The notes: generated from the letters alone by a model not told the origin. Numbered from the stretch's first letter, positions 12,259-59,640 are shown. The stretch: 64,000 bases of DNA from Patescibacteria group bacterium (GCA_023379265.1 JAMCUI010000004.1:9273-73272); one strand, 5' to 3'. Program-made: numbers and translations.

Positions 12259-12762
12259 TTAATTCCAATTAGTCAAACATGACGATATGTCCACTTCAGG
12301 AGCTGGGGTTACACCCACAGCTCCTTTAGACCATTCCACTTTTGCCGTAATCTTATACGCCACGGGAGTGGGAGTTATTGTTGCTACCGGTAACGGACAG
12401 TCAGCGGGATTAGAACCGGAAATTTGAAGCGATTGGCCATAAGTTCCTGTCGGTGTAACCGGAACCGGAGTAAGGCCGCTGTTTATGTAGCAAGAGGAAA
12501 AACAGTTAGTAGTGAGAGAGCCCAGTCCGCCCGAATCCCGTATCACTCTTGCACGCTCGATCTGTTGGTTGGCAAGATTGGTAGCGATGCTCTTATTTTC
12601 CGAAAAGATAGAATTTCGTATGGCATATAGTTCAATAGCTGTAATACCGGACATAAACAGTATGATAAGAGTCAGCGCTACCAATACTTCAATCAGTGTT
12701 TGACCGCGTGTTATCAGACCTGCCGAGTCGGAAGCAACTCCTGTGCTAACATCAATGATCAT
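12259..12762 (-). CDS. pilin-like protein with an extended leader (MIIDVSTGVASDSAGLITRG|QTLIEVLVAL)
   Basis: G-QTLIE variant of the prepilin motif plus a hydrophobic helix. Its 5' end lies inside the 78-bp tandem repeat. Confidence 0.6.
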   Translation of the reverse strand: MIIDVSTGVASDSAGLITRGQTLIEVLVALTLIILFMSGITAIELYAIRNSIFSENKSIATNLANQQIERARVIRDSGGLGSLTTNCFSSCYINSGLTPVPVTPTGTYGQSLQISGSNPADCPLPVATITPTPVAYKITAKVEWSKGAVGVTPAPEVDISSCLTNWN

Positions 12763-12975
12763 AAACTTTAATATCTAAGGACACGGTGTTATCAGACCTG
12801 CCGAGTCGGAAGCAACTCCTGTGCTAACATCAATGATCATAAACTTTAATATCTAAGGACACGGTGTTATCAGACCTGCCGAGTCGGAAGCAACTCCTGT
12901 GCTAACATCAATGATCATAAACTTTAATATCTAAGGACACGGTGTTATCAGACCTGCCGAGTCGGAAGCAACTCC
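12709..12975. repeat. 78-bp tandem repeat, about 3.4 identical copies, spanning the junction of two pilin genes
   Basis: Unit starts at 12709, 12787, 12865 and 12943. Each unit carries, on the - strand, TAG, a 12-nt spacer and ATG with 20 further codons, giving the mini-ORF MIIDVSTGVASDSAGLITPCP*. Confidence 0.9.
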
Positions 12976-13527
12976 GGCAGAATTTATACTAATTCTGTAA
13001 TACCCGTCAGCCGGGGCATTTTTATTACTCATACAAATTACCGCCGGCTGACTTACTGTCCCAGAGTTTTCGGTAAACAATATCCTTGCTGTATCAGGCG
13101 GTGTAATATAAGGCGTCACTAAAACATCCTTGGAGAAAGTAAAATTTTGTGTAGAAAACTGGCTGCTACCACACTTGCCATATATTTGTTTATTTGTAAA
13201 GTCGACATACCACCCGTCCCATCCTGTTGAAGAGTCAGGAGAGCAATTGCATACGCTGCAGTCTATCTCACCATTATATGACCTGCTTTGGGCATCCCTC
13301 AAAATGTTTTTCATATTCTGACCTGCGGAAATGACCGTCTGTTTCTGGTTTAGTGTGGCATAGCCGGCAAAACTTACACCCAAAAGAAGAAATATGACCG
13401 TGACAACCACCAGGATCTCAATGAGGGTAAAACCACTCAACAGTTGTGAGTTGTTCCGCCGCTTGCGTGATCCCGCTGAGGCGGGATGAGTTGTAAGTTG
13501 TGAGTTATTTTTTATTTTTTGAGTCAT
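12931..13527 (-). CDS. type IV pilin-like protein with a long leader (…NNSQLLSG|FTLIEILVVV)
   Basis: Prepilin motif and hydrophobic helix. The C-terminus ...SAGVASDSAGLITPCP* is part of the 78-bp repeat. Confidence 0.75.
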   Translation of the reverse strand: MTQKIKNNSQLTTHPASAGSRKRRNNSQLLSGFTLIEILVVVTVIFLLLGVSFAGYATLNQKQTVISAGQNMKNILRDAQSRSYNGEIDCSVCNCSPDSSTGWDGWYVDFTNKQIYGKCGSSQFSTQNFTFSKDVLVTPYITPPDTARILFTENSGTVSQPAVICMSNKNAPADGYYRISINSAGVASDSAGLITPCP

Positions 13528-13573
13528 TTTATAAACTATTAACTAACAACCAACAACTTACAACCCAACCAAA

Positions 13574-14089
13574 TTAAGGATTTGTCACCTGATAATTACA
13601 ATTACTGCCACATAAAGTGCCCCCGGAATCGTTACAATAGGCACTTGAGGCACCGGTACTGCCGTTTTCCAAATGTGCACACAAATCGTAGTGCAATGAG
13701 TCAGTCTGGAGGTAATAATAAGCAAATGCAGGCGATTTGGGATCGGAAGGATACTTCGCTATATAACTGCTGTCCAGACTCGGTATGCCTGTAGTAGTAG
13801 GCAAGGGATAAGATGAATTTTCGGACTTATAGATCTCAAGGGCGGAGCGCACCTGTTCCAGATCGGATTTGCGCAAAGCATCCCGGCCGTTTCTTGTCAT
13901 GGCTTGATATCCGGTCACGCCGATTGTAGACAAAAGGGCAACAATTGTAGCTGCCACCAGAATCTCAATAAGTGTAAAACCGAACATCGGTTGTAAGTGG
14001 TGGGTGGTGGGCCCGCCGGCCGGCTCGTCTCGCGGTGAAGCGGGCGAGGCAGTTTGCGGGTAAACTCTGTTTGATTTGTTCTTTGACAT
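13574..14089 (-). CDS. type IV pilin-like protein (…MFG|FTLIEILVAATIV)
   Basis: Prepilin motif. I trimmed the start to Met9 of the track ORF so that it does not overlap the upstream stop at 14092-14094. The true start is uncertain. Confidence 0.65.
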   Translation of the reverse strand: MSKNKSNRVYPQTASPASPRDEPAGGPTTHHLQPMFGFTLIEILVAATIVALLSTIGVTGYQAMTRNGRDALRKSDLEQVRSALEIYKSENSSYPLPTTTGIPSLDSSYIAKYPSDPKSPAFAYYYLQTDSLHYDLCAHLENGSTGASSAYCNDSGGTLCGSNCNYQVTNP

Positions 14090-14091
14090 GT

Positions 14092-14580
14092 TTACTGCTG
14101 ATTTGAAACGCAAAAATAATTTGGGGACTCAGACTCAAGTCCTGTGCAGACGGTATAGGATGAGGTAGTACAGTTTGAAGCGCCGGGAGTCGGCCCACAG
14201 TAATATGGAGTCCCCTGGGGGTCAACCGGAACAGCGGGCATAATGCTTATCGGTGGAGTGGGACAATTTATAGCAGTAAAAAAGCTGTTTCCGCCTCCGG
14301 CAGGAGTGATATAAGCATAACCGCAAACGGAATAATACTGCTCCAGTGCAGATTGAACTTCCTTAATATCACTTTTTCTTTTGGCATCCCGTCCTTTTTT
14401 CTGGGCGCTTGAGAAGGATGTCAGGCCCATGGCGATAAGTACCGTAATTATGGAAATAACAACCAACAACTCAAGCAGGGTAAAACCATAGTTATCGTTA
14501 TGGATAGATTTCGATTTATAGTCTGAGACTGTTAATCTACCAAAGATTTGAGATTTGAGATTTGAGATTTGAGATTTCAT
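14092..14580 (-). CDS. type IV pilin-like protein (MKSQISNLKSQIFGRLTVSDYKSKSIHNDNYG|FTLLELLVV)
   Basis: Prepilin motif. The start is taken at the ATG immediately after the upstream gene's stop; ATG 14592 is an alternative. The leader contains a heptanucleotide repeat. Confidence 0.65.
   Translation of the reverse strand: MKSQISNLKSQIFGRLTVSDYKSKSIHNDNYGFTLLELLVVISIITVLIAMGLTSFSSAQKKGRDAKRKSDIKEVQSALEQYYSVCGYAYITPAGGGNSFFTAINCPTPPISIMPAVPVDPQGTPYYCGPTPGASNCTTSSYTVCTGLESESPNYFCVSNQQ
14545..14577. repeat. heptanucleotide simple-sequence repeat (GATTTGA)x4.7 on the + strand, equal to (TCTCAAA)n on the coding strand, in the first codons of a pilin gene
   Basis: gatttgagatttgagatttgagatttgagattt read directly from the sequence. 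Confidence 0.9.
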
Positions 14581-14581
14581 A

Positions 14582-15064
14582 TTAAGGTTCATGTATAGTA
14601 TAACTGTTTCCGGTACTAGTATTGCAAGGAGAAACAGGAGTGAGGTCTTTATCCGGATCCACAGCATTCTCAAGACAGGCAGAAAGAGCATATTGTGACG
14701 TACTGCCGGGATTATATATATAAGGTGTGCCTGTCAGGCTTCCCGGATCGCACGGAACTTTTCGCAAGTAAATATTTCCGCTACAGTTGGAGCTTGAAGA
14801 CCAGCACTGTCCGCATATGGAAGCCGGAAATGCGCCCGTTGTGGGATATCGCTGATATTGATCATTTAATTTATATAGTTCGAGGGCTTTTTGGATATTT
14901 GATAAATCACCTTTCCTTTCAGTGTCTCTAGCCCTTTCACGGGCTCCCATGAAATTGGGAAAGAGTACAGCAATTACCATGGAAATTATAGCTATCACCA
15001 CAAGAAGCTCGATAAGGGTAAAACCTGAATTCAGTTGTGAGTTGTTTTTTATTTTATTTATCAT
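14582..15064 (-). CDS. type IV pilin (MINKIKNNSQLNSG|FTLIELLVVIAIISMVIAVLF)
   Basis: Canonical prepilin leader and cleavage motif. C-terminal Cys pair. Confidence 0.85.
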   Translation of the reverse strand: MINKIKNNSQLNSGFTLIELLVVIAIISMVIAVLFPNFMGARERARDTERKGDLSNIQKALELYKLNDQYQRYPTTGAFPASICGQCWSSSSNCSGNIYLRKVPCDPGSLTGTPYIYNPGSTSQYALSACLENAVDPDKDLTPVSPCNTSTGNSYTIHEP

Positions 15065-15107
15065 GTCGTGAAACTGGCTACCTGCTACTTTCTACATATT
15101 ACATAAA

Positions 15108-27525: not shown

Positions 27526-29700
<2,175 letters not shown>

Positions 29701-29765: not shown

Positions 29766-31799
29766 ATGAACAATTACATATTAATGGCGGCGGGAGGAGG
29801 ACTTTTAGCGGTATTATATGGCCTTTTTCTTTCCGCCAGAATTTTCAGACTTCCTTCGGGCACTAAAGATATGCAGGATATATCAGACGCCATAGCCGAA
29901 GGTGCCTCAGCATTCCTCAATAGGCAATATAAAACAGTAGCAGCAATAGCCTTGGTAATATTTGCTATATTATTTTATACACTTGGCCTTCTGTCTGCAG
30001 TTTCTTTTGCTGTTGGAGCCGCCTTTTCAGCCATGGCAGGCTTTATCGGCATGAACGTGTCAGTCCGGGCAAATGTAAAAACAGCCCAGGCGGCCAAAAA
30101 CGGTCTAAGTGACGCACTTGAAGTTGCTTTCAAAGGAGGTTCAGTAACAGGACTAATGGTTGCCGGTCTGGCACTTCTTGCTTTAAGTATAATTTTTTAT
30201 ATAGTCGTAGGAGGAAACCCCTCGGCAGTAAACTTACAACCGGTTGTAACTCTCAGTTTCGGAGCGTCGCTTATCTCTGTCTTTGCCCGTCTGGGTGGAG
30301 GTATTTATACAAAAGGAGCGGATGTCGGGACGGATATGGTCGGTAAAATTGAAAAAGGCATCCCGGAGGACGACCCAAGAAACCCAGGCGTGATTGCTGA
30401 CTTGGTAGGGGACAACGTTGGCGATGATGCCGGAATGGCCGCTGATCTTTTTGAGACTTATGTAGTGACCGCAACCGCTGCCATGCTTTTGGCACAGCTT
30501 ACTATGCCGGGCTTCACAAATGCCCTTGTTTTTCCATTAATTGTCGGCGCGGCGGCCATAGTCACCTCAATTATAGGCACGTTTTTCGTAAAACTGGGCA
30601 AGAACGGGAAAATTATGCCGGCACTTTATAAAGGACTTATAACGACAGCAGTACTTTCGGCCATAGTCTTTTATTTTGTCACAAAGGCAATCATGACAGG
30701 AAACGGCATGTACACAAGCCTTAACCTCTATCTTGCCAGCCTCATTGGAATAATAGTGACTATTGGCATGGTGGCAATAACCGAGTATTACACATCAAAA
30801 AATTATTCACCCGTAAAGGAAATTGCTCAAGCTGCAAATACAGGACACGGGACAAACATAATTGCGGGTCTTGCCATATCGATGAAATCCACACTTTTGC
30901 CAATATTATTGATATCAGCCGCCACACTTTCCGCCTACTATCTTGCAAATCTTTTTGGGATTGCTATTGCTGCAGTTGCCATGTTATCTCTTACCGGAAT
31001 TGTTGTCGCAATTGACGCCTTTGGTCCAATCACAGATAACGCAGGAGGAATAGCAGAGATGACAAACCAGCCGGAAAAAGTCAGGGAAGTAACGGACGCT
31101 CTGGATGCTGTCGGCAATACAACTAAAGCAGTAACCAAAGCCTACGCCATAGCATCGGCCGGTCTTGCAGCTTTAGTCCTTTTTGCCAGCTATACCCAGG
31201 AATTGTCAAAATCCGTAGTCTTAAACACGCTGCAGCTGACAGCCAGTTTTTCTCTCTCTGATCCAAAAGTGCTTGTCGGTCTGCTCATAGGCGCAGCCTT
31301 ACCTTATTTTTTTGGCGCCCTCGCTATGGAAGCGGTCGGGAAAGCTGCTGAAGCGGTAGTAATAGAAGTGAGGCGGCAGTTTAAGGAAATCAAAGGAATA
31401 ATGCAAGGTAAAGCCAAACCCCAATATGGGGTAGCTGTAGATATAGTCACGAAATCAGCATTAAAAGAGATGATATTACCAGCCTGTCTTCCTGTAGCTA
31501 CTCCCATAATAGTAGGATTTATCCTGGGTCCTTATGCATTGGGAGGATTCCTTGTAGGAACAATTGTTACGGGTCTTTTTGTAGCAATCTCCATGACGAC
31601 CGGCGGGGCTGCCTGGGATAACGCCAAGAAATATATCGAAGAAGGCCATTTTGGCGGGAAAGGCAGTCCGGCTCACCAGGCTGCGGTCACCGGCGATACG
31701 GTAGGAGACCCTTATAAAGATACCGCCGGTCCCGCTATAAACCCGATGATAAAGGTAGCAAACATTGTTGCGTTACTGATAGCAGGCTTTATTCATTAA
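29766..31799 (+). CDS. hppA: membrane-bound H+-translocating (V-type) pyrophosphatase
   Basis: [17 protein letters not shown] and [17 protein letters not shown] motifs, about 16 TM helices. Preceded by a Shine-Dalgarno sequence (AGGAGG). Confidence 0.95.
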
Positions 31800-31877
31800 A
31801 AGTCAGGACCTGCCATTAATCCTATGATTAAAGTGGCAAATATTGTGGCTCTCCTTATCGCAGGATTTATACATTAA
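31800..31877 (+). repeat. in-frame duplicate of the hppA 3' end (KS + [23 protein letters not shown]), diverged only at synonymous sites
   Basis: 23 codons give identical amino acids, with 16 third-position or synonymous nucleotide differences relative to the hppA end. Confidence 0.85.
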
Positions 31878-34631: not shown

Positions 34632-35471
34632 ATGAAAATTGACGGCAGAAAAATCGCCTACGGAATAAAAAATAGCCTGAAGAAGCAGGTAAACATCATC
34701 CTTTCTCAAAATATTTCTCCTCATCTTGCGGTAATTATTGTCGGGAAGGATAAAAGTTCGCTTGCCTACGTCAGGCAAAAACAAATAACCGGCGCCGATA
34801 TTGGAGTAAAAGTATCTGTAATATCCTTTCCTGATAATCTGGCGCAAAATAAGCTTTTTTCAGAAATTGACCGATTGAACCAAGATCGGTCAGTCCATGG
34901 CATCATAATCCAAAGGCCTCTACCAATAACCGTAGACAATATAAAACTTGATAAGGCCGTAACTCCACAAAAAGATGTTGATGGCTTTCACAAAAATTCC
35001 TTATTCCGCCCGCCAATAGCCCTAGCCATAATGCATATATTACATAATATATTTAGCACTATAAAAAATGATAAAAATGAAAGTTTTTCCGGCTGGCTTT
35101 CAAAAAAGAAAATACTGGTCATCGGTAGGGGAGAGACTGGTGGTAAACCTATAGCAAATTATTTGATGAAAAATAATTTATCTATAACTATAGCTCATAG
35201 TAAAACAACCGACTTAAAAAGGGCGTGTCTTACCTCGGAAATTATCGTAAGCTGTGTAGGGAAGTCAAACATTGTGCGACATGATATGATAACAAATAAA
35301 ACAATCCTGATTGGAGTCGGACTGCACCCTGAGGATAACAAACTACGGTCTGATTATGATGAAGCTGAAATCGCCCAAAGAGCCGCTTTTTACACACCAG
35401 TTCCAGGAGGTGTAGGACCTGTTAATGTAGCATGTCTCTTTGAAAATCTAGTTAAAGCGTGTAAGATATAG
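34632..35471 (+). CDS. folD: bifunctional methylenetetrahydrofolate dehydrogenase / cyclohydrolase
   Basis: AYVRQKQ ... VIGRGETGGKPIANYL ... TPVPGGVGPVNVACLFENL. Confidence 0.9.
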   Translation: MKIDGRKIAYGIKNSLKKQVNIILSQNISPHLAVIIVGKDKSSLAYVRQKQITGADIGVKVSVISFPDNLAQNKLFSEIDRLNQDRSVHGIIIQRPLPITVDNIKLDKAVTPQKDVDGFHKNSLFRPPIALAIMHILHNIFSTIKNDKNESFSGWLSKKKILVIGRGETGGKPIANYLMKNNLSITIAHSKTTDLKRACLTSEIIVSCVGKSNIVRHDMITNKTILIGVGLHPEDNKLRSDYDEAEIAQRAAFYTPVPGGVGPVNVACLFENLVKACKI

Positions 35472-35628
35472 AAGATTTTACAGATCTACCGGACCTGTTA
35501 ATGTAGCATGTCTCTTTGAAAATCTAGTTAAAGCGTGTAAGATATAGAAGATTTTACAGATCTACCGGACCTGTTAATGTAGCATGTCTCTTTGAAAATC
35601 TAGTTAAAGCGTGTAAGATATAGAAGAT
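35415..35628. repeat. 76-bp tandem repeat x2.8 whose first copy is the 3' end of folD
   Basis: Unit starts at 35415, 35491 and 35567. The last copy is truncated. Confidence 0.9.
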
Positions 35629-36284
35629 TAATACCTCTTATCAATAAACTCCATTTTCCCGTTATCAATCTTTAAGTACTGACCATAACCCCAGCGAATA
35701 AAACCTGTATTTATATATCTCTCCCTTAAATTAAACTCAGCCAGATGACTGTGTCCGCATACCAAAACAGTATTTTCCGGAAGATTGCTATTTAACCATT
35801 TTCTCATCCGGTTATTCTGACTTTTATAATAACTAAGTAGCGGCTTGCCCAAAATGGCCAAAGGTATCTTTTCCCGCAAAAACTGGTAAGCAGCCGTCAG
35901 TATCCGGCCATGAGGCAACCACAAATACCTGTCGTCAGCAGCTGGAGCTATACGGCAACCGTGCTCTATATGCAGGATTTTACCTCCGGCTTTCATTTTA
36001 TATATGTTCCGCTGGCTGACCGAAAAAAGATTCAAACTTTTATCAGACAGGCTTTTCCGGTCATGGTTACCAAAAAGATAAATAGTTTCCCGGGATTTTA
36101 ACAAAGGGAATAATTTTTTCCAGCCGCTTTCGAGAAAATCATCAAGGCTAACAATATACCCATCCCAGAAATCGCCATTTATTATCACTCTATCGGCAGG
36201 AGTGATAAGTCTGGTAAGGAAATCAAATTTAGTCTTTTCAAACTTTTTTGTCAGATGAGTATCTGAAAACACTACGGAAATCAT
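35628..36284 (-). CDS. calcineurin-like metallophosphoesterase
   Basis: VFSDTHL, INGDFWD, GNHD and CGHSH motifs. I chose the internal Met (MISVVFSDTHL) to avoid overlap with the xer gene. Confidence 0.7.
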   Translation of the reverse strand: MISVVFSDTHLTKKFEKTKFDFLTRLITPADRVIINGDFWDGYIVSLDDFLESGWKKLFPLLKSRETIYLFGNHDRKSLSDKSLNLFSVSQRNIYKMKAGGKILHIEHGCRIAPAADDRYLWLPHGRILTAAYQFLREKIPLAILGKPLLSYYKSQNNRMRKWLNSNLPENTVLVCGHSHLAEFNLRERYINTGFIRWGYGQYLKIDNGKMEFIDKRY

Positions 36285-36300: not shown

Positions 36301-37245
36301 TTACTTGCGGTGAAATTTTTGATGAACCTGGCGCAGCTGCGGGTTAGTGACGTGTGTATATATCTGGGTTGTCGAAATATTTTTGTGCCCAAGCATCTCC
36401 TGGATCGAGCGCAAATCAGCTCCGGCTGACAATAAATCTGTGGCAAATGAATGTCTCAGCCCGTGCGGTGTAATCTTTACAGGCAACCTGGCTTTTTTGA
36501 CATATTTCTCCACAATCCTTTGGACTGAACGTACATTCAGTCTTGCCGCCTCATTTTCCCGTCCCGGTGAAGCTTTCCTGCCCGCATAACGAATAAATAA
36601 TGGCGAAAACGTATCCTCCCTTTCCTTCAAGTAGCGCTCAAGCCACAGGACTGCTGAATCTGACAGAAAGACTACCCTAGGCCGTCCGCCCTTTCCTATC
36701 ACACCAAACTCTTTTCTTTCAAGATTTATGGAGTCGCGGTTGAGCCGCGTCAGTTCGCTCACGCGAAGTCCGGTGCTAAAAAGCACCTCTAATATGGCTT
36801 TATCCCTCATGCCCTGGGGCGTAGAGATATTGGGCATATTCAAAAGCCTTTCAACCATCTCCCGATCAAGAAACTTCAGCGATCTGCTCTCCGCCTTTCC
36901 CAACTCTACTTTTTCAGGATTCAGAGTGGGCTTATCCTGCCTTATAAGAAACCTCAAGAAAGCCCTAAGTGCAATCAGATGATAATTTTGCGTAATGTGT
37001 TTGAGAGTCAGACCGTGGTCATCTGAATATCTGGATAAAAATAACCTGTAATCCCTTACCGTTTCTGCCTTTATTGAGTCTGTATCTGATATAGTAGGGG
37101 ATTGCAAGGCTCCAAATTGCAAAAACCTGTTTAGATAATGCCTGTAGTTCCTGATCGTTAACCTCGAACAATTCCGTTCAAGTTCCAAATAGATCAGAAA
37201 CTGATCAATCGCTTCAGATAGCTTCATTCTTACATTTTGCGACAT
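36301..37245 (-). CDS. tyrosine site-specific recombinase, XerC/XerD family
   Basis: C-terminal HGLRHSFATDLLSAGADLRSIQEMLGHKNISTTQIYTHV carries the R-H-R-Y catalytic signature. Confidence 0.85.
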   Translation of the reverse strand: MSQNVRMKLSEAIDQFLIYLELERNCSRLTIRNYRHYLNRFLQFGALQSPTISDTDSIKAETVRDYRLFLSRYSDDHGLTLKHITQNYHLIALRAFLRFLIRQDKPTLNPEKVELGKAESRSLKFLDREMVERLLNMPNISTPQGMRDKAILEVLFSTGLRVSELTRLNRDSINLERKEFGVIGKGGRPRVVFLSDSAVLWLERYLKEREDTFSPLFIRYAGRKASPGRENEAARLNVRSVQRIVEKYVKKARLPVKITPHGLRHSFATDLLSAGADLRSIQEMLGHKNISTTQIYTHVTNPQLRQVHQKFHRK

Positions 37246-38917
37246 CTATATATATTTGTCAAATTTTATCCGTCTTGAACTCATCTCGATATACTCACGT
37301 AACTTCGGTTTGCAATTGAGTTACTCAGTATATACCCCTCATAAATTGCTTCTGTCCGGGCTGGAAAATCAAAGGAACAAAGTGCCAGATTTGGTTAAAT
37401 TACTTCCGGAATGTCATATCAATACGAAAACGCAACAAACCAGTCAAGAAAATTAAAAAGGTGGAAAATCAGAATCGTTGTCAAAATACAGGTTTTAACC
37501 TTCATTCCTGGCCTCCTATAATCGTTTTTGAGGGCTTTAATTTGATTAGGATGTATATTTAGTCATCTTAACCCTAAAAGGTAAGAACCGTTTTATTTAG
37601 TTTGAGAAAATAGCATTTTACATAATAGAAGTTTTGACGGACCTATCGTAAATTTGACGGATAACTGATTTATAAAGAAAAAGAGAATTATAAATAAGAA
37701 AGACAATTCAACAACTTAATTTATAAATATCACTACGAAAATCTAAGCAGATGAATATGGTAAAAATTGGCACTTCTCCGGAGATCCGTGCGTATATATG
37801 TCGCAAAAGATATATTGTGCGACAATATAGCAATCCATATCCCCGGCCTTTTTTTAACGAAAGATTCTCTTCTTTACCTATATCATAAAAATGAGAATAA
37901 ATACCGGGGAAGGTAGAGACTCATACCGGTCAAATCTGCCAGGAATAAATAAACCGTTCGTCATCGAATAACCAATTAACAGTGCTTGCTGGACAGAATA
38001 TGTTTGGTCCATAGAGAGGCTTTCGGTTTTTTTCTTCTCTACACTATTTAGATCTATATAACGCTCTAAACTCATATATCTGAAGCTAAAATTATTATCT
38101 TCTACTTGCATTAAATACGGAATAGAGCGTCATCAAAATCTAAACAACTATTTTCGTGGCTAATATACTCTATTTATCCGATTATCTATATGGAATTATA
38201 CTCAATTTAGCGCATAACAACGCTCTGATTTCTAATTTTTGAGGCTAATCTTTCATTATGCCTTTTCTGTACACGTATTACTAGAGAGCATTATGACGCT
38301 CTAATCCTTTTATTATGAAGCTAAGTATTTTTCGACATTTCTTATTCGTTACTTTAATGTAAGAGTAAAAATAAGTCCTATAGTTTAGGGCTTCGCAATA
38401 GTCCAAATATTTAATTCTAAAGCTAAATCAACTTTCATTTATTATATGAATATCTATGGTATAGAGCATAATGATGCTCCATTCTCTCTTTATTTAAGCT
38501 AATAGGAAAACTGTAAACCTCTATACGGATAATTGCTATAAAATATAGTTTAGGGCTTTATTAGGCTCCATAGCAATCACGTTGAGGCTAATTTTTTGGT
38601 ATTTTAGGATAATAAAGATAGTATAGAAGGTCATGATGCTCTAAACTAACAATGTTATGCGTAATTAATTTGTTCAGTCAGGCATATGTGTTTTCACTTA
38701 CACTTTGAGAGTGATACCGTGAAAAGTCGGTACAAATATTCGTGAAAAGTTATCCACATTACTATAGGATACTATAGGCTTTTGTACCATATCAAACTAT
38801 ATCACTACTCTACTTCCCCATTCCCGCCACAACTTTTAAATTTCTTTGGACTAAATAAATTCTTGATAATAAAACTTCCTAATTCTAAATTGGAAATTAA
38901 AAATTGAAATTAACCGG
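37246..38917. other. 1.67-kb ORF-free AT-rich region with a degenerate palindromic repeat family, one perfect DnaA box and an inverted duplicate of the xer gene 5' end
   Basis: No ORF of 80 aa or more in any frame. Imperfect palindromes of form tAGAGCnnnATGAyGCTCtaa recur about nine times between 38060 and 38650. TTATCCACA at 38750-38758. Confidence 0.6.
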
Positions 38918-44878: not shown

Positions 44879-45611
44879 AGTCTTTTATCTTCTCCAGGCT
44901 GGACAAAGTATCCTGTAAATCTTGTGGGAGCTCACTCTCCAAAACCAACGCTTCCTTCCTGTATGGGTGCATAAATTTTATGTATTTGGCGTGCAAAAAT
45001 AAGCGCCCACAAAACTTTTGATCTCTACGGTAAACTTTCCTTCCTGCATAAAGATTATCCCCTACTATACTATGCCCTATATATTTAAGATGAATTCTGA
45101 TTTGGTGAGTCCGGCCGGTATGCGGAAATGCAGTAAGTAATGTATATTTTTCCTGGCCCAAAGATCCGTATAAAGATTCGCATTTATATAAAGTTATCGC
45201 CTCTTTTCCACCCGGTAAAACGCCAAACTTTTCCCTGCTCCATGGCAACCTGCCTACGCTTGCTTTTATTTCCCCACTTATAGATGGCATCTGCCCATGC
45301 ACAAGAGTAAAATATCTTTTTTCTATTTCCCTCTCCTTAAATTGTGTCTGCATGAGCTTAAATGTTTCGGGGTCTTTAGCGATAATAAGTAATCCTGATG
45401 TCTCCTTGTCCAGTCTATGCACTATACCTGCTCTGGAAATAAAATCATTTGCTTCATTAACCGGAAATTGAGAATTGAGAATTGATAATTTTCTCTCCGC
45501 CCAATCCTGTATAGTTTCCCCCTTTACCGATTCAGCTCTGTTGACAACCACACCAGAAGGTTTTTCCACTACCAATAGATACCCATCCTCAAATACTATC
45601 TTTATTTCCAT
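44871..45611 (-). CDS. RluA-family 23S rRNA / tRNA pseudouridine synthase
   Basis: Catalytic motif GIVHRLDKETSGLLIIAKD. Confidence 0.85.
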   Translation of the reverse strand: MEIKIVFEDGYLLVVEKPSGVVVNRAESVKGETIQDWAERKLSILNSQFPVNEANDFISRAGIVHRLDKETSGLLIIAKDPETFKLMQTQFKEREIEKRYFTLVHGQMPSISGEIKASVGRLPWSREKFGVLPGGKEAITLYKCESLYGSLGQEKYTLLTAFPHTGRTHQIRIHLKYIGHSIVGDNLYAGRKVYRRDQKFCGRLFLHAKYIKFMHPYRKEALVLESELPQDLQDTLSSLEKIKDYD

Positions 45612-50054: not shown

Positions 50055-50081
50055 GCCGAGGTGGCGGAATTGGCACCCACC
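50055..50081 (+). pseudogene. 5' fragment (acceptor arm plus D-arm) of a degenerate type-II tRNA, here called tRNA-B
   Basis: GCCGAGGTGGCGGAATTGGCA... Its acceptor 5' strand GCCGAGG is complementary to CCTCGGC at 50233-50239. Confidence 0.5.
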
Positions 50082-50088
50082 TAAATAT

Positions 50089-50175
50089 GCCGCGATGGTG
50101 GAATTGGCAGACACGCAGCTCTCAAAAAGCTGTGAGCCCAAAGCTCATGTCGGTTCGACTCCGACTCGCGGCACA
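50089..50175 (+). tRNA. tRNA-Leu(CAA), type II (long variable arm)
   Basis: Acceptor GCCGCGA/TCGCGGC, D-arm GTGG..CAC, anticodon stem CAGCT/AGCTG with loop CTCAAAA (anticodon CAA), variable-arm stem GAGC/GCTC, T-arm GTCGG-TTCGACT-CCGAC. Confidence 0.85.
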
Positions 50176-50180
50176 ATTTT

Positions 50181-50240
50181 TGGCTGGTCAAAAACCTGTG
50201 GGCCTCAAAGCTCATGAGGGTTCGAGTCCCTCCCTCGGCA
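50181..50240 (+). pseudogene. 3' portion (anticodon-loop region, variable arm, T-arm, acceptor 3' strand) of degenerate tRNA-B
   Basis: T-arm GAGGG-TTCGAGT-CCCTC is intact. The acceptor 3' strand CCTCGGC matches the 5' fragment upstream of tRNA-Leu. The anticodon stem does not pair. Confidence 0.5.
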
Positions 50241-50307
50241 CTTCGATCCGACATAATGTCGGGCCTCAGTGTAGGCACGAATGTCACACGGTTGTCTAGC
50301 CCATCAT

Positions 50308-50612
50308 TCTATCACCTGAACTACAAAATCTATGCACTCTGTTCCGTTTCAGCTGTCTTTTCCATACTGTAGAACCTTATTCTATCACCTGAACTACAAA
50401 ATCTATGCACTCTGTTCCGTTTCAGCTGTCTTTTCCATACTGTAGAACCTTATTCTATCACCTGAACTACAAAATCTATGCGCTCTGTTCCGTTTCAGCT
50501 GTCTTTTCCATACTGTAGAACCTTATTCTATCACCTGAACTACAAAATCTATGCGCTCTGTTCCGTTTCAGCTGTCTTTTCCATACTGTAGAACCTTATT
50601 CTGTCACCTTTG
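50308..50612. repeat. 73-bp tandem repeat x4.2 covering the dnaB 3' end. Each copy encodes ...MEKTAETEQSA* on the - strand
   Basis: Unit starts at 50308, 50381, 50454, 50527 and 50600. Copies 1-2 versus 3-4 differ by a single synonymous change (AGT versus AGC). Confidence 0.9.
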
Positions 50613-51889
50613 AAAATAAGGTCTATCTCCCCCAAAGCTCCGTTTCTGTGCTTGGCGATTAGAAGCTTGACTATCTGATGATCCCATTTCTCCAACTCTT
50701 GCTCCTCACGGTATAGAAACATCACTACATCTGCATCCTGCTCTATGGCACCTGACTCACGAAGATCCGCCAACTGCGGCACCTTCGTACCTCTTGCTTC
50801 AACAGCACGTGAAAGCTGGGAAACAGCAAGTACCGGAATCTTTAATTCCCTGGCAAGATTTTTTAAGGATTGTGACACTATCGATACTTCCTGCACCCTA
50901 TTATCATACCGGCGGCCGGGGTCTACCAGCTGCAGATAGTCAACAATAAGAAGTTTCACGTTGTGACTTACCTGAAGCCGACGGGCCTTAGTCCTCATTT
51001 CAAAAAGATTTATACCCGGCGTATCATCAATAAAAATTGGCGCTTCGGATAGCTCCCCCATCGCTTCTGAAAGCCTAGTAAAATCATCATCATTTAGTCT
51101 GCCGGTTTTCAGCCTCCAGGCATCTACATCAGCCTGCGCTACAAGTAACCTATCTACTAACTCTTCCTTGCTCATCTCCAAAGAAAATATGCCGACAGCC
51201 TGCTTTTGCGCCAGCGAAACGTACTGGGCAATATTTAGGACAAAAGCTGTTTTTCCTTGTCCTGGACGGGCGGCTAGTATCACCAGGTTGGAATCCTGCA
51301 GTCCAGCCAATTTGTTGTCTAAATCGGAAAATCCTGTAGGCACGCCCCGAAGTGATGAACCTCTCTTGTGCAATTCATCCAGCCTGTCAAAGCTTTCCGC
51401 CAGCGCATCCTTCACCTGTACAAAATCCTGTCTTGATCTTTTCAGAGCAATGGACAATATGTCGCTCTCTGCTTTATCAAGAAGCATCTTTACATCCGAC
51501 TGGTCACCAAAAGCAGACTCACTTATCCTGCCTGAACTTTCGATGAGACGCCGCTTGACATAGTTATCCGTCACTATATTGCTGTATACCTCAATATTGG
51601 CAGAAGTGGGTACGACATTGGTCAGATCTGTCAGGTATGCTGTGCCTCCAACATCCTTGTATTTGCCCATTTTTTTCAGTTGTGAGGTAACAGTGACGAT
51701 ATCAACCGGCTCATGCCGCTCAAAAAGAGCCATCATCGCGGCATAAATATGATTGTGTGCATCCTTATAAAAAAATTCCGGCCTGAGGAAATCAACCACA
51801 TCTGCCAAAGCGTCTTTATCAATAAGTATGGCACCCAACACACTGGCTTCTGCCTGCTCATCATGAGGGGGTATTCTTGCTTCAGCCAT
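50549..51889 (-). CDS. dnaB: replicative DNA helicase DnaB
   Basis: Walker A ARPGQGKTAF, Walker B LLIVDYLQL, and DnaB N-terminal domain ILGAILID. Confidence 0.9.
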   Translation of the reverse strand: MAEARIPPHDEQAEASVLGAILIDKDALADVVDFLRPEFFYKDAHNHIYAAMMALFERHEPVDIVTVTSQLKKMGKYKDVGGTAYLTDLTNVVPTSANIEVYSNIVTDNYVKRRLIESSGRISESAFGDQSDVKMLLDKAESDILSIALKRSRQDFVQVKDALAESFDRLDELHKRGSSLRGVPTGFSDLDNKLAGLQDSNLVILAARPGQGKTAFVLNIAQYVSLAQKQAVGIFSLEMSKEELVDRLLVAQADVDAWRLKTGRLNDDDFTRLSEAMGELSEAPIFIDDTPGINLFEMRTKARRLQVSHNVKLLIVDYLQLVDPGRRYDNRVQEVSIVSQSLKNLARELKIPVLAVSQLSRAVEARGTKVPQLADLRESGAIEQDADVVMFLYREEQELEKWDHQIVKLLIAKHRNGALGEIDLIFKGDRIRFYSMEKTAETEQSA

Positions 51890-52075
51890 AGTTCAACTCC
51901 AGTGGAAATTTAACTAAAATTAAAAACTGCTCATCATGAGGGGGTATTCTTGCTTCAGCCATAGTTCAACTCCAGTGGAAATTTAACTAAAATTAAAAAC
52001 TGCTCATCATGAGGAGGTATTCTTGCTTCAGCCATAGTTCAACTCCAGTGGAAATTTAACTAAAATTAAAAACTG
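51854..52075. repeat. 73-bp tandem repeat x3 covering the dnaB 5' end (start codon plus the first 12 codons plus 5'UTR)
   Basis: Unit starts at 51854, 51927 and 52000. The third copy has a GGGGG to GGAGG change. Confidence 0.9.
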
Positions 52076-52087
52076 CTGTTTTGACGT

Positions 52088-52111
52088 TTGAGTTTTGAGA
52101 TTTGAGATTTT
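52088..52111. repeat. imperfect heptamer repeat (TTTGAGA-like x3.5), the same motif as in the pilin leader at 14545
   Basis: tttgagttttgagatttgagatttt read directly. Confidence 0.7.
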
Positions 52112-55078: not shown

Positions 55079-56161
55079 ATGAAAGAAAGATTGGACAGGC
55101 TCAGGCGTATTCTCATCGTAGAAAAGCTTGGTGCTCTTTTTGTCACCGATCAGGCAAATGTCACTTATCTTACTGGCTTTGCCGGGCTTTCCCCGCATGA
55201 ACGGGAGGGTTTCCTTTTCGTCACAAAAAAAGATGCATATTTATTGACTTTCCCTACATACTTTGGCCTATATAAAAAGGGTTCAGACAGTTTCAAAACA
55301 GTAAATATTACTCCCGTACATAGACTGACCGACTACCTAAATGAAATTACTCAAGGCCAAAAAATAAAACATGTTGGGGTGGAAAAAGAAAACCTGACAC
55401 TGTCCGAAATGGAATCGCTTAAGGCAAAAACTGAATTTGAATTCCGGGAAACCGCCGGCCTGGTCGAGAAGTTGCGAGAAATAAAGGATGAAGAAGAAAT
55501 CGGTTATATCAGCCAGGCGGCAGCGATAACGGATGACGCTTTTGAGTTTATCAAGACAAAAATAAGAAAAGGCGTTACCGAACACGGATTGGCGCTCGAG
55601 TTGGAATTTTTTATAAAGAAAAAGGCAGACGACATCGCCTTTTCCCCCATCGTGGCGTTTGACGAGAATGCGGCAATCCCACACTATCTTCCAAACAAAA
55701 AACAAATAACAAATAACAATTTAATACTTTTAGATTTTGGAGCTAAGATACACGGTTATTGCTCTGACATGACACGAGTAGTCTTTTGGGGAAGTCCCAA
55801 AAACGATAAAATAGTCACAATTTTCCAAACAGTTCTTTCAGCGCAAGAGGCGGTTATGTCGCATCTGAGAATCGGTAAAACTGGCCATGAAATAGATATC
55901 ATTGCCAAAGAGATAATAAAAAATGCCGGATTTCCCGAGTATTTGCACGGATTGGGACACGGAGTGGGATTAAACATCCATGAAGCCCCCAGGCTGAAAA
56001 AGGACAGTCCTGACATTATGACAAAAAACATGGTCGTGACTGTGGAACCGGGCATTTATATAGAAGGCTTTGCTGGCACAAGAATTGAAGATTTGGTAGT
56101 ATTAAAGGAAGACGGAATTGAAATATTGTCCAAGTCGGATAAAACGTTACAGATAATATGA
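55079..56161 (+). CDS. M24-family Xaa-Pro aminopeptidase / prolidase
   Basis: HGLGHGVGLNIHEAP and the pita-bread-fold metal ligands. Confidence 0.85.
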   Translation: MKERLDRLRRILIVEKLGALFVTDQANVTYLTGFAGLSPHEREGFLFVTKKDAYLLTFPTYFGLYKKGSDSFKTVNITPVHRLTDYLNEITQGQKIKHVGVEKENLTLSEMESLKAKTEFEFRETAGLVEKLREIKDEEEIGYISQAAAITDDAFEFIKTKIRKGVTEHGLALELEFFIKKKADDIAFSPIVAFDENAAIPHYLPNKKQITNNNLILLDFGAKIHGYCSDMTRVVFWGSPKNDKIVTIFQTVLSAQEAVMSHLRIGKTGHEIDIIAKEIIKNAGFPEYLHGLGHGVGLNIHEAPRLKKDSPDIMTKNMVVTVEPGIYIEGFAGTRIEDLVVLKEDGIEILSKSDKTLQII

Positions 56162-57366
56162 TTACTCCACAGACATTAAAAGGCTTCCGTGACTTTCTGC
56201 CTGAGGAAGCGATGAAACGCCAGTATGTCATCGATATCATAAGGCGCACTTTTGAGCTTTACGGTTTTGAACCGGTAGAGACTCCGGCTATAGAATATAT
56301 TGAGGTCTTTACGGGCAACATCGGCGAAGATGAGAAGCTTTTTTACCGGTTTACAGACACTGGAGGACGCAAAGTGGCTCTTCGCTACGACCAGACTGTT
56401 CCTACCTGCCGGCTTATTGCCCAGTATCCTGATAAAATCACTTTGCCTTTCAAAAGATACCAAATACAGACTGTCTGGCGTTCCGAGAAACCGCAAAAAG
56501 GCAGATCCCGAGAATTTCTACAGTGTGATGCCGATATTTTTGGAATTGATGACCGCACAGCAGACGCTGAAACAGTGGCTTTGACAATAGATATTTATAA
56601 GAATCTGGGATTTAAGAAACCCATCGCTGTCATAAATGACCGGGATTTGTATGCTGGCATACCGTACAAAGCAATCGTGGCAATAGATAAACTTGAAAAA
56701 ATCGGCGAAGAAGGAGTAATTAGCGAACTGGAAAATAAAGGTTACACAAAAGATGATGCCGTCAAAATCTTAAATTCCGTAAAAAATAATCAGCCCAACG
56801 AGCGCCTCAATCAGATATTCAGATATCTTGATAATTACGGAATGAAAGACAATTACCGTTTCCAGCCCACGCTTGCTCGCTCATTTTCCTATTCTAACGG
56901 GACTATCTGGGAAATTATAGTTGAAGAATTTGACGCCGGATCCTTGTGTGGCTGTGAACGTTTTGACAGCTTAGTTTCAAGGTTTTCCAAGAAATCAGTT
57001 CCGGGAGTAGGTTTTGCCGTAGGATTTGACCGTACAGTCCTTGCTATGGAGGAAATGGGGCTTCTGCCCGCCATAAAAACCAGATCAAAAGTACTCGTCA
57101 CGGTATTTTCCAAAGACCTTTTGCCTTCATCCCAAAATTTTGCTAAAAAATTAAGATCGGCCGGCATAAATACCGATTTATTTTCCGACCCCAACACCAG
57201 ACTGGATAAGCAACTCAAACACGCAGATAAAAAAGGAGTGCAGTTTGTAGCTATCATAGGACCTGATGAGGCAAAAGAAAACAAAGTCACAGTCAAAAAC
57301 CTGCCAACGCGTGAGCAGAAAACGCTTTCACCATCCGATGCCATCACTTTTATACAAAAGTCATAA
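56158..57366 (+). CDS. hisS: histidine--tRNA ligase
   Basis: Class II motifs: KGFRDFLPEE, RYDQTVP, FKRYQIQTVWRSEKPQKGRSREFLQCDADIFG. Confidence 0.85.
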   Translation: MITPQTLKGFRDFLPEEAMKRQYVIDIIRRTFELYGFEPVETPAIEYIEVFTGNIGEDEKLFYRFTDTGGRKVALRYDQTVPTCRLIAQYPDKITLPFKRYQIQTVWRSEKPQKGRSREFLQCDADIFGIDDRTADAETVALTIDIYKNLGFKKPIAVINDRDLYAGIPYKAIVAIDKLEKIGEEGVISELENKGYTKDDAVKILNSVKNNQPNERLNQIFRYLDNYGMKDNYRFQPTLARSFSYSNGTIWEIIVEEFDAGSLCGCERFDSLVSRFSKKSVPGVGFAVGFDRTVLAMEEMGLLPAIKTRSKVLVTVFSKDLLPSSQNFAKKLRSAGINTDLFSDPNTRLDKQLKHADKKGVQFVAIIGPDEAKENKVTVKNLPTREQKTLSPSDAITFIQKS

Positions 57367-57367
57367 T

Positions 57368-58324
57368 ATGCTTTATGACTTCTCTAAAACCGTCCAAACA
57401 AAGACAATGCAGAAAATCTTATCCAAAAGTCATAATAGGGCGATCCTTGCTCTTATTGTCGCCAACAGTATCTGGGGTGCCGCCTCTCCTATATTCAAAC
57501 TGGCTCTTGAAAATATCCCGCCTTTTACCCTTGCTTTTTTCCGTTTTTTCGGCGCCATGGCAATCATTTTCCCTTTTGCCGTAAACGACTTCTGGATAAG
57601 GAAAAAAGACTGGCCCAACCTCATCTTCCTTTCCCTTTGCGGCATCACGGTAAACATCACTTTCTTCTTCTGGGGACTGCAGGAGGCTCCGGCTATAAAT
57701 GCGCCGATTATAGCTTCCTCTGGACCAGTATTTATATACCTTTTTGCAGTATTGTTTCTCAAAGAAAAACTCCACCCCAAAGTATTATCAGGAATAATGG
57801 TTGGCCTTACCGGAGTTCTAGCTATCGTCCTGCAACCAGTATTTACCCATGAGCCTGACGGGCGGATCCTGGGAAACATTTTCTTCGTCATTGCCACTCT
57901 GGGTACAGTAGGATATGTCATTTTCAGCAAAAAAATTGTGAAGTATTATAATGCTGCCACGCTCACTTTCTGGTCGTTTCTTATCGGCAGCCTGACGTTT
58001 TTACCCATGTTTATATGGGAAATGAGAAACCTCCATCCCTTTTACACGATCGATTACCGCGGTTGGATTGGCCTGGCCTTTGGCATATTCCTCTCCTCCG
58101 CTTTAGCTTATTTCCTTTATGAATGGAGTATAAAAAGTCTCCTAGCCCAGGACGTGGGAATATTTACATATATCGATCCGGTTGTGGCGGCAATTATTGC
58201 GGTACCACTATTGGGAGAAGTCATCACACCAATTTACCTCCTGGGATCATTTCTTGTCTTTGCCGGCATCTATGTAGCCGGGGGCCGTCTGCACTGGCAC
58301 CCGATACATTGGTTAAAGAGGTGA
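57368..58324 (+). CDS. DMT-superfamily (EamA-like) transporter
   Basis: 10 TM helices in two EamA-like halves. Start is taken at the ATG just after the hisS stop. Confidence 0.7.
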   Translation: MLYDFSKTVQTKTMQKILSKSHNRAILALIVANSIWGAASPIFKLALENIPPFTLAFFRFFGAMAIIFPFAVNDFWIRKKDWPNLIFLSLCGITVNITFFFWGLQEAPAINAPIIASSGPVFIYLFAVLFLKEKLHPKVLSGIMVGLTGVLAIVLQPVFTHEPDGRILGNIFFVIATLGTVGYVIFSKKIVKYYNAATLTFWSFLIGSLTFLPMFIWEMRNLHPFYTIDYRGWIGLAFGIFLSSALAYFLYEWSIKSLLAQDVGIFTYIDPVVAAIIAVPLLGEVITPIYLLGSFLVFAGIYVAGGRLHWHPIHWLKR

Positions 58325-58464
58325 CTTCTGCTGCACTGGCACCCGATACATTGGTTAAAGAGGTGACTTCTGCTGCACTGGCACCCGATACATTGGTTAA
58401 AGAGGTGACTTCTGCTGCACTGGCACCCGATACATTGGTTAAAGAGGTGACTTCTGCTGCACTG
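58289..58464. repeat. 42-bp tandem repeat x4.2 whose first copy is the 3' end of the DMT transporter gene (…LHWHPIHWLKR*)
   Basis: Unit starts at 58289, 58331, 58373, 58415 and 58457. Copies are identical. Confidence 0.9.
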
Positions 58465-58507
58465 TGGCCCCACTTCATAAGTTTGTTGGATAACTGAAAT
58501 AAATTGA

Positions 58508-58715
58508 GCCGGAATGGTGGAATTCTGCTTTACTTCACAGCCTAATCGGCCGGAATGGTGGAAACCGGCCGATTGACTCGGTAAAAGCTAATCACCAACC
58601 TCTGATTTACAACGTTCGGGAACTGGCCGGAATGGTGGAAACCGGCCGATTGACTCGGTAAAAGCTAATCACCAACCTCTGATTTACAACGTTCGGGAAC
58701 TGGCCGGAATGGTGG
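58508..58715. repeat. 77-bp repeated hairpin element (stem GGCCGG / CCGGCC, loop aatggtggaaa) x2.2, plus a partial copy upstream
   Basis: Unit starts at 58548, 58625 and 58702, with a partial copy at 58508. Confidence 0.85.
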
Positions 58716-58773
58716 AAGCAGGCTCGATTGCTACTCTTCCCTTCCTGCAAAATAAATGGTATAATCTACTTTT

Positions 58774-59082
58774 ATGAAAGCTAGTATACATCCTAAATGG
58801 TATCCTGATGCCACAGTCGTTTGTGCCTGCGGTAATACTTTTACTGTAGGTTCAACCAAACAAGCTGTCAGGGTCGAAATCTGCCATAAATGCCATCCTT
58901 TCTTTACAGGAGAGATGAAGTATGTCGATACCATGGGAAGGGTGGAAAAATTCCAGGCCAAGCAAAAACAGGCACAAGCTCAAATAGCCGTACTCGCTGC
59001 CAAAAAGAAAAAGAAACTGGAAAAACAAGCCCAGGAAAGAACCCCAAAAACTCTGCGGGAAATGCTGTTGGGAAATGGTTAG
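58774..59082 (+). CDS. rpmE: 50S ribosomal protein L31
   Basis: [10 protein letters not shown] ... CxC ... [10 protein letters not shown] zinc-ribbon signature. Confidence 0.9.
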
Positions 59083-59094
59083 ATTCGTATTAAA

Positions 59095-59190
59095 TTATTA
59101 GGTATTACGTATTAAGTATTGAATTAAGAGATAATTTTCCAAATACTTAATACTTGATACGTAATACTTAATACGATTTTTTTATTTATG
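59095..59190. terminator. long imperfect AT-rich palindrome built from gtattaagtattg / caatacttaatac units; a hairpin-capable element downstream of rpmE
   Basis: Inverted repeats read directly. Confidence 0.35.
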
Positions 59191-59255
59191 ATGTTGCAAT
59201 AATTGAAAGTTGGAGGAGCAGCAGTAGATACAAAAGTTAATTTTACTCACGGATT

Positions 59256-59640
59256 ATGAATAATGATATTGTTATATTAGAAATCCATGGGGCAACAGCT
59301 GACTCGGTCATTTTAGAAATCCATGGGGCAACAGCAGATATGTTAGTATAATTGTTTAACGGATTATGAATACTGACTCGGTCATTTTAGAAATCCATGG
59401 GGCAACAGCTGACTCGGTCATTTTAGAAATCCATGGGGCAACAGCTGACTCGGTCATTTTAGAAATCCATGGGGCAACAGCTGACTCGGTCATTTTAGAA
59501 ATCCATGGGGCAACAGCAGATATGTTAGTATAATTGTTTAACGGATTATGAATACTGACTCGGTCATTTTAGAAATCCATGGGGCAACAGCTGACTCGGT
59601 CATTTTAGAAATCCATGGGGCAACAGGTGGTGATGAAGCC
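59256..59640. repeat. nested tandem duplication of the release-factor gene 5' end. The outer unit is repeated 3 times and contains a 36-bp inner unit ([12 protein letters not shown]) present in 2, 4 and 2 copies
   Basis: Inner-unit starts at 59265 (variant), 59301, 59375, 59411, 59447, 59483, 59557 and 59593. Upstream mini-ORFs are 59256-59351 and 59366-59533. Confidence 0.9.

Follow-up and report, generated by a model that had tools for sequence, protein, structure and literature searches.

Tandem repeats with units tens of bases long are known from several settings. Mycobacterial interspersed repetitive units (MIRUs), as Supply et al. 1997 reportedly described them, measure 46–101 bp and include a 77-bp class, and Tishkoff et al. 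1997 are said to have found in yeast rad27 tandem duplications of unique sequence up to ~100 bp, bounded by direct repeats of 3–12 nt. Displacement of a gene's 3' end is exemplified by icd of phage 21 and e14, in which the displaced end differs by function-preserving substitutions. MIRUs contain short open reading frames (ORFs) that overlap the neighboring start codon, allowing translational coupling (PMC12548453), and the tandem repeats of Borgs, with example units of 18–21 nt and 48% A, lie in frame inside genes in about half of cases (PMC9879509). Here, we describe short tandem duplications, most of them at the ends of genes, in a 64,000-nucleotide stretch of DNA from a Patescibacteria group bacterium (GCA_023379265.1 JAMCUI010000004.1:9273-73272), referred to throughout as the window.

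The window contains 51 genes, whose names were verified by Pfam, and is 88% coding. Judged from its DnaB relatives, the host belongs to Candidatus Gottesmanbacteria (Microgenomates, Patescibacteria) of the Candidate Phyla Radiation (CPR) and is uncultured; its habitat is groundwater/sediment. Arrays were located with Tandem Repeats Finder, a repeat finder, and a custom offset scan of the window (≥67% identity over 48 nt, offsets 20–400). All three agree on nine tandem-duplication loci, approximately one array per 7 kb, and the offset scan returned 0 matches at control offsets of 3020–3400 and 7020–7400. These searches bear out a preliminary description of this DNA, which had claimed tandem duplications on gene ends at nine or more loci. 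The explanation we prefer, with a probability of roughly 0.58, is lineage-specific, high-rate short tandem duplication followed by expansion, contraction, and homogenization of the minisatellite type, with purifying selection confining the survivors to gene boundaries.

Table 1. Coordinates of the tandem arrays and of other repeated features in and beside the window.
Feature	Position	Strand	Description
Pilin junction array	12708-12975	-	78 bp x3.4, 100% identity
gyrB 3' end array	29529-29697	+	Periods 71 and 35, degenerate
hppA 3' end array	31728-31877	+	Period 78, degenerate; 17 synonymous codon changes, 0 non-synonymous
folD 3' end array	35415-35629	+	76 bp x2.8, near-perfect
Inverted copy of xerC-like start	37793-37812	+	11-12 nt exact; 553 nt upstream of start
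tRNA-Leu locus	50055-50241	+	tRNA-Leu(CAA) gene 50089-50174 between 5' and 3' stubs of another tRNA-Leu(CAA) allele
dnaB 3' end array	50306-50609	-	73 bp x4.2, near-perfect
dnaB 5' end array	51854-52077	-	73 bp x3.1, near-perfect
DMT/EamA transporter 3' end array	58289-58464 (58498 with degenerate copy)	+	42 bp x4.2, near-perfect
Intergenic array	58548-58730 (58507 with partial copies)	+	77 bp x2.4, near-perfect
RF1 5' end array	59250-59626	+	74-nt unit, nested 36-nt unit; complex
RecR 3' end array, just outside window	GenBank strain		76 bp
FeS-assembly gene 3' end array, just outside window	GenBank strain		75 bp

The arrays resemble minisatellites, or variable-number tandem repeats (VNTRs), in that their units are tens of bases long and joined head to tail, their copies are near-identical and evolve in concert, and strains differ. 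They depart from VNTRs in their frequency, in being built from local unique sequence that includes the gene's own start or stop codon, in a unit length of 70–80 bp at 11 of 12 loci, and in old copies that remain coding-like. Flap-nuclease mutants (yeast rad27; E. coli polA 5'-nuclease) offer a second parallel; the dnaB and DMT junctions fit it, but the duplications in such mutants span a broad size range in contrast to the 75-bp spike observed here. Similar in unit size to MIRUs, the arrays also place tandem copies at gene junctions. Coupled short ORFs occur in the dnaB 5' and pilin units, but most arrays sit at 3' ends. MIRUs, however, constitute one dispersed and apparently mobile related family, whereas the units described here are mutually unrelated copies of adjacent gene ends. 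A dispersed family of the MIRU type was rejected because units at different loci share nothing beyond short k-mers. Like Borg repeats, the arrays are genome-specific, pervasive, perfect, and fast-evolving, have arisen independently at many loci, and are flanked by partial repeats; the unclear mid-unit origin of the Borg repeats parallels the X-J-X structure, in which a linker J separates copies of a block X, at several arrays here (PMC9879509). They differ from Borg repeats in unit length (70–80 bp), in lacking enrichment for A, in never lying in frame inside genes, and in residing on a bacterial chromosome. Adenine accounts for 30.6% of bases in the units and 30.9% in the window; no base bias is evident, and a Borg-like adenine bias was rejected on these figures. 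Duplication of gene 3' ends at att sites is similar in that a displaced 3' end carries function-preserving substitutions, and the tRNA-Leu 3' stub in the window starts at the anticodon loop. Here, however, no element lies between gene and stub (the gaps are 6–22 nt) and 5' stubs occur as well.

Several other known sources of repeats were rejected. No integrase adjoins the arrays, as an att-site origin would require; the sole tyrosine recombinase in the window (36301–37245) is Xer-like and lies ~700 nt from the folD array. A diversity-generating retroelement does not account for the 18 differences at hppA, which involve all four bases and only five times start from A. The arrays are not CRISPR arrays: the units abut without unique spacers, and the only Rfam match is to tRNA. 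In the literature we searched, we found no description of gene-terminus tandem duplications of this pattern in CPR or other bacteria.

Further analysis drew on three kinds of sequence found by exact-protein look-up and on an outgroup set. A contig of a metagenome-assembled genome (MAG) in GenBank (GCA_023487465.1 JAMDBJ010000009.1) is 99.2–99.9% identical to the window but not identical. Logan k=31 contigs of run SRR10278331 match the window at 100% identity, whereas those of SRR10267473 match the GenBank record, not the window, at 100%; the data thus represent two strains, 99.4–99.9% identical to each other and drawn from two samples, and for each strain there are two independent assemblies. 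The third comparator, a sister species (GCA_964520615.1; ~92–94% identity) that a different study assembled with MEGAHIT, is syntenic across most of the window. Our outgroup set of 1.99 Mb comprised 79 Microgenomates dnaB loci, 80 diverse hppA loci, and one more distant syntenic relative.

The focal lineage yields 12 independent loci, namely the nine in the window together with the RecR 3', FeS 3', and sister PilC 3' arrays, each counted once. Their periods are 78, 71, 78, 76, 73, 73, 42, 77, 74, 76, 75, and 73, and nested half-steps measure 35–36. Eleven of the 12 thus fall at 70–80 bp. The same scan of the outgroup set found 63 arrays with periods of 21–393, of which two lie in this range. 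The clustering of unit lengths around 75 bp noted in the preliminary description therefore holds, and arrays with units of 70–80 bp are denser in the window than in the outgroup loci by about two orders of magnitude. Unit length is divisible by three at four of the 12 loci, as expected without frame constraint. We saw no assembler effect that would favor 71–78 over 20–70 or 79–127, and the degenerate arrays share the same lengths.

Placement at gene ends can be explained more simply. Random 75-nt segments of the window are not wholly within one coding sequence in 17.6% of cases, and the probability that all nine arrays would fall in such segments under random placement is 1.6e-7. A gene-internal duplication causes a frameshift or inserts 24–26 residues, whereas if at least one end of a tandem duplication falls outside a gene, each gene involved retains an intact copy, even where neighbors are convergent or co-directional; selection alone therefore yields placement at gene ends. 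It follows that the preservation of the ORF by one copy, remarked on in the preliminary description, is true but automatic for any tandem duplication across a gene boundary and provides no independent observation. Selection is also consistent with the greater number of 3' than 5' ends, because 5' duplications add upstream ORFs and shift promoters. Two of the explanations offered in the preliminary description can be judged against these results. A high duplication rate filtered by selection accounts for placement, in that 17.6% of segments would be tolerated and an intact gene is kept in every tolerated class, but it leaves the ~75-bp step unexplained. A dedicated gene-end mechanism is not needed for placement, whereas the tight unit length that it might account for is real and goes beyond what the filter alone provides.

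Most arrays lie at 3' ends and differ in their state of preservation. At gyrB, the last 8–16 codons and the stop are followed by two degenerate echoes of themselves; the sister species has three copies there, with a period of 35/70 and a copy structure different from that of the window. The hppA array consists of the last 23 codons plus stop (31728–31799), a 6-nt linker, and an untranslated echo (31806–31877) that specifies the same peptide despite 18 nucleotide differences from the genic copy and a longest shared run of 6 nt. The other strain shares this echo, as does the sister species, in which the linker measures 8 nt and the period 80; the difference in linker length indicates that the echo has no conserved frame relative to hppA. 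A possible 17-codon ORF without a good ribosome-binding site lies within the hppA echo. The folD array contains the last 18 folD codons, the stop, and a few bases up to the stop of a convergent phosphoesterase gene; the two genes are separated in the sister species by a 6-nt spacer without an array. The dnaB 3' unit comprises the last 17 codons, the stop, and 19 nt downstream, and its counterpart in the sister is a degenerate second copy with a period of 74. In the DMT/EamA unit, the last 11 codons, stop, and 6 nt are repeated and then followed by one older degenerate copy; the sister is single-copy at this end.

The remaining arrays involve gene starts, a junction, and a spacer. Each dnaB 5' unit carries a 37-nt leader that includes the ribosome-binding site and the first 12 codons, and each extra unit therefore constitutes an upstream ORF of 25 codons that ends in a TGA overlapping the following ATG. 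Two diverged copies with a period of 73 occupy this position in the sister species (ATGs at L001 9928 and 10001). The pilin array covers the stop of one pilin gene (12931–13527), a 12-nt spacer, and the start of the next (12259–12762), and its copied block X, 34 nt from the 3' end of the upstream gene, now lies in frame within the downstream prepilin leader, 78 nt away. In the sister species, which lacks this array, the pilin genes share a 10-nt overlap and the leader reads MKYCSGG rather than MIIDVSTGVASDSAGLITRG. The 77-bp array is confined to the spacer that separates the transporter gene from rpmE (L31) and is bordered on either side by degenerate partial copies, and each of its units opens with a short GC hairpin resembling the 5' end of tRNA-Leu. 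Upstream of a short RF1 gene (59548–60285), the base unit of 74 nt combines 31 nt of leader with the first 14 codons and is accompanied by nested 36-nt duplications and a 182-nt super-unit, with an older diverged copy farthest upstream; the sister has four degenerate copies of period 73–74. RF1 itself is a short form of 232–245 residues in this genome and in related Microgenomates (window 59548–60285; L005 2892–3590; L012 3166–3864), matching only the second half of the PCRF domain and missing the N-terminal domain. Across loci, the arrays stretch spacers of 5–10 nt to 150–450 nt.

Comparison of strains revealed that the arrays change, and three differences stand despite the influence of the assembler on copy number (see below). 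The FeS array reads X-J-X-J-X in SRR10267473 and in the GenBank record but is single copy in SRR10278331, where it is crossed by a k=31 contig (L090). At the dnaB 5' end, the window carries 3.1 copies, compared with 1.07 in the GenBank record. Copies also change together. In the window, successive units of the dnaB 3' array carry the variants C,C,T,T, and every copy has 'ttttgTag'; in the other strain, the variants are T,T,C, and every copy has 'ttttgCag'. Similarly, the 54-nt X block of FeS is identical among copies within a lineage but differs between lineages at nine of 54 positions, almost all of them synonymous. The dnaB 3' and FeS copies thus evolve in concert. The preliminary description had proposed comparing orthologous loci in the closest relatives; in the sister species, this comparison revealed arrays of matching period at shared gene ends, as well as others that the window lacks. 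Degenerate sister arrays occur at six shared gene ends (dnaB 5', dnaB 3', RF1 5', gyrB 3', hppA 3', and FeS 3', the last with a period of 75), and none was found at the pilin junction or at the folD, RecR, and DMT 3' ends. An array absent from the window is a 73-nt echo of the PilC 3' end (L093 2839–2980), in which nine codons differ from the gene, seven of them synonymously, including CTA to TTG. These comparisons show that arrays have been gained, lost, and renewed throughout the sampled time span.

The degenerate copies retain a coding signature. Ten comparisons between a genic terminus and its echo yielded 16, 19, and 63 differences at codon positions 1, 2, and 3, respectively, a third-position excess with P = 4e-10 against uniformity and ~3e-4 against the ~45% third-position share that we estimate for a neutrally decaying frozen copy. 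Synonymous-only divergence is therefore stronger than the preliminary description had stated, with hppA the clearest case. The hppA echo predates the sister split and has since changed at two of 72 positions, compared with ~12–15% in the spacer just downstream. The divergence of the echoes indicates that the duplication process is old as well as ongoing.

The tRNA-Leu fragments claimed in the preliminary description are likewise real (50055–50075 and ~50190–50241). The 5' stub measures 21 nt and the 3' stub 52–60 nt, the latter beginning at the anticodon loop, and both are 99–100% identical to the functional allele of the sister species. The resident tRNA-Leu, by comparison, shows compensatory stem changes and has acceptor and T arms like those of more distant Gottesmanbacteria (L009, L014). 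The tRNA-Leu(CAA) gene seems to have undergone replacement in situ, and a new allele with flanks of 13 and 15 nt lies within the remains of the old one. This locus is the RNA counterpart of the coding-like echoes.

The junctions take two forms. Some arrays are simple duplications with microhomology in the shape of short direct repeats at their edges: AGCAG flanks the dnaB 5' array and is directly visible in the single-copy allele, CTGCACTG occurs at the DMT array, and a 12-nt imperfect match at the dnaB 3' array. Other arrays have the X-J-X form. A 13-nt linker J at folD resembles the ancestral downstream flank as seen in the sister species. The FeS linker is 21 nt long in both lineages. Neither linker has a second copy on either strand, and the idea that they represent filler copied from nearby was rejected. 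Hairpin-driven slippage, a terminator, or an RNA element was rejected as well, in that DNA folds of 11 units gave z = −0.6 to +1.0 and Rfam matched tRNA only. A shared recognition motif was rejected on the finding that plain k-mer sharing among units is no better than among random segments. The best shared 7-mer, GACTCGG, occurs in three of 11 units (pilin, 77-bp, and RF1; 12723–12963, 58575–58658, and 59301–59599) and once in the remaining 62 kb, for which a rarity-weighted permutation test with a fair null gave P ~0.007; we regard this sharing as a marginal lead. Avoidance of its core, GAGTC, was not observed in the window.

We propose the following model for these arrays. Stretches of unique DNA, nearly always of 70–80 bp and occasionally of a half-step of 35–42 bp, would undergo tandem duplication at a far higher rate than they do in related genomes. 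Once two copies exist, slipped-strand or unequal recombination would expand, contract, and homogenize the array, and duplications with both ends inside one gene would be removed by selection. The survivors would sit on stop codons in most cases and otherwise on start codons or in spacers, and arrays that are no longer homogenized would decay into echo copies. The 5–12-nt microhomology at some junctions suggests that the engine is slippage or unequal exchange. A physical ruler in replication or repair may set the 70–80-bp step, and the echoes may be kept codon-clean either by selection against contraction products or by replacement with imported alleles.

Several observations weigh against this model. 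Under simple slippage between chance direct repeats, unit lengths should spread broadly and decay with distance instead of peaking at 70–80 bp. The copied FeS block ends exactly at the stop codon in both lineages and that of RecR 1 nt after it, which a pure filter does not predict. Several arrays have the form X-J-X, with a linker that is absent from the single-copy allele or, at FeS, both absent from that allele and unrelated between lineages, and the RecR junction carries a 1-nt filler, A, that creates the palindrome AGTACT; the founding event may consequently be more complex than one slip. The third-codon-position bias of the echoes far exceeds what neutral decay would allow. Finally, the sampled sequence amounts to ~73 kb of the focal genome and ~70 kb of the sister species.

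That the arrays are artifacts of short-read metagenome assembly is hardly credible, although the perfect arrays bear an assembler's stamp. Their unit is about half of a 150-nt read, and their lengths equal the minimum for one traversal of a loop (the smallest r+n*u with L-u >= k, by our own arithmetic on assembled lengths) at k=127 in the window (folD 215, dnaB 5' 224, pilin 268, and DMT 176) and at k=55 in the GenBank record (folD 139, DMT 134, and FeS 204). Copy numbers in the assemblies are accordingly assembler-set, are to be read as lower bounds, and make most differences between assemblies uninformative; those at folD and DMT, which fit the two loops, were not counted as polymorphism, nor were those of the RF1 super-unit and dnaB 3' array, which fit less well. 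A loop, however, needs unit-to-unit junction k-mers that are present in the reads, and the degenerate arrays (71, 78, 70, 80, and 73–75 bp), present in three assemblies, are impossible as loop artifacts. Their recurrence in the sister species, where another program and another study gave the same periods, and the lack of arrays at four loci of sibling MAGs from the same project led us to discard the systematic misassembly raised in the preliminary description. Indeed, an independent k=31 assembler stops exactly at array edges, the points at which real arrays would force a de Bruijn graph to branch, but crosses the single-copy FeS allele. Contigs of SRR10278331 end at 35444, 30 nt into the folD array (L087), or start inside the RecR array and end at 59605 in that of RF1 (L090), and one of SRR10267473 (L091) begins with the last 30 nt of the FeS array and ends at 59597, 30 nt inside the RF1 array. 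Full-length DnaB is on no Logan contig; both dnaB ends lie in arrays. We also consider it improbable, if less so, that a dedicated mechanism copies a block of ~75 nt at the ends of transcripts or coding sequences, for example through template switching coupled to initiation or termination of transcription or translation, or through reverse-transcript-mediated insertion, which would make placement mechanistic rather than selective. Such a mechanism would suit the very tight unit length in both lineages, the exact FeS and near-exact RecR boundaries, the predominance of 3' ends (8 of 12 loci), and the recurrence at identical gene ends in two species. It is harder to reconcile with right-hand boundaries 0–19 nt past the stop and left-hand boundaries 36–75 nt upstream of it, with the involvement of 5' ends, 3' ends, and a gene-gene junction alike, and with an array that is entirely intergenic (58507–58730). 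Several junctions show ordinary microhomology, the units lack a robust common motif or secondary structure, and the selection filter by itself reproduces placement; no reverse transcriptase was seen among the scanned ORFs of the window.

The echoes themselves invite two further explanations. They could be stubs of older alleles, left when imported homologous DNA replaced a gene or its end through one-sided homologous and illegitimate joining, such that ~75 nt of the resident allele remained beside the new one; donors that were clonemates would give perfect duplications. As a general account this seems unlikely, even though replacement of an allele with its old end left as a stub fits tRNA-Leu, whose flanking stubs match the sister's functional allele. 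The almost exclusively synonymous differences between genes and echoes at hppA, PilC, and gyrB are also in its favor, as are a HppA C-terminus conserved enough for a distant donor to encode the same 23 residues and a full type IV pilus/DNA-uptake-type apparatus encoded in the window. Perfect arrays of at least three copies and their homogenization nevertheless need amplification in situ, the ~75-bp length is not predicted, and the hppA echo is older than the sister split and has barely changed since. No donor allele came to light by orthologue comparison or in two metagenome scans: an exact-pattern scan for the hppA echo gave no match, 80 metagenome hppA loci were all ≤69% identical, and none of the orthologues lies nearer the echo than the gene (the genic copy and the echo are equally distant from the nearest, at 53 and 54 of 72). 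Somewhat less doubtful, though still tentative, is the idea that a physical ruler of ~74 bp, with a half-step of ~36 bp, operates in replication or repair and re-copies gene ends, and that fast turnover keeps the echoes codon-clean via contraction into the gene. Candidates for such a ruler would be nucleoprotein-wrapped or otherwise measured DNA, or flaps or imported single strands of fixed length. Contraction could then return an echo to the gene, so that selection would act on DNA that is never translated: slips that fuse an echo into the gene may expose it, and a very large population might penalize damaging changes. Selection of this kind cannot explain hppA once identity is down to 75%.

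Some features of the window lie outside the arrays. The inverted copy of the xer start region claimed in the preliminary description exists but is a weak match of 11–12 nt (ATGTCGCAAAA, ~37798) and is probably incidental. It falls in a 1.65-kb stretch without long ORFs (37250–38900), between the xerC-like gene and the next gene, that contains copies, 30–40 nt long and dispersed, of a palindromic motif (AGAGCRTnATGAYGCTCT ... GAAGCTAA) at spacings of 73–159 nt. This stretch is ~85% conserved with the sister species, has no Rfam match, and may represent an array in decay or an RNA locus of unknown type. After rpmE, at 59087–59180, runs of the heptamers GTATTAA (x4.7) and AATACTT (x4.7) form the arms of a long imperfect hairpin that is followed by a T run and probably serves as the terminator of rpmE; at the same place, the sister species has a hairpin with another sequence. 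Other heptanucleotide repeats, perfect or nearly so, occur here and there in the window, some just upstream of genes: AGATTTG x4.9 (14544–14577), AATTGAG x3.6 (45466–45490), TTTGAGA x3.4 (52078–52110), and AAACAAA x3.9 (55693–55719).

These arrays have consequences for the genes on which they sit: overlapping genes are separated, a prepilin leader peptide is rewritten, and coupled upstream ORFs are added to dnaB. They are potential strain markers for this population. MAGs assembled from short reads give minimum copy numbers for the arrays, and comparisons across assemblies with different k therefore mislead. The coding-like divergence of untranslated copies provides a testable case of selection acting via recombination products. 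Hosts of this kind are not culturable, and the reduced repair repertoires of CPR bacteria are known from gene lists only. If the 70–80-bp step reflects a molecular ruler, it would reveal a hitherto unknown aspect of how DNA is replicated or repaired in the CPR.

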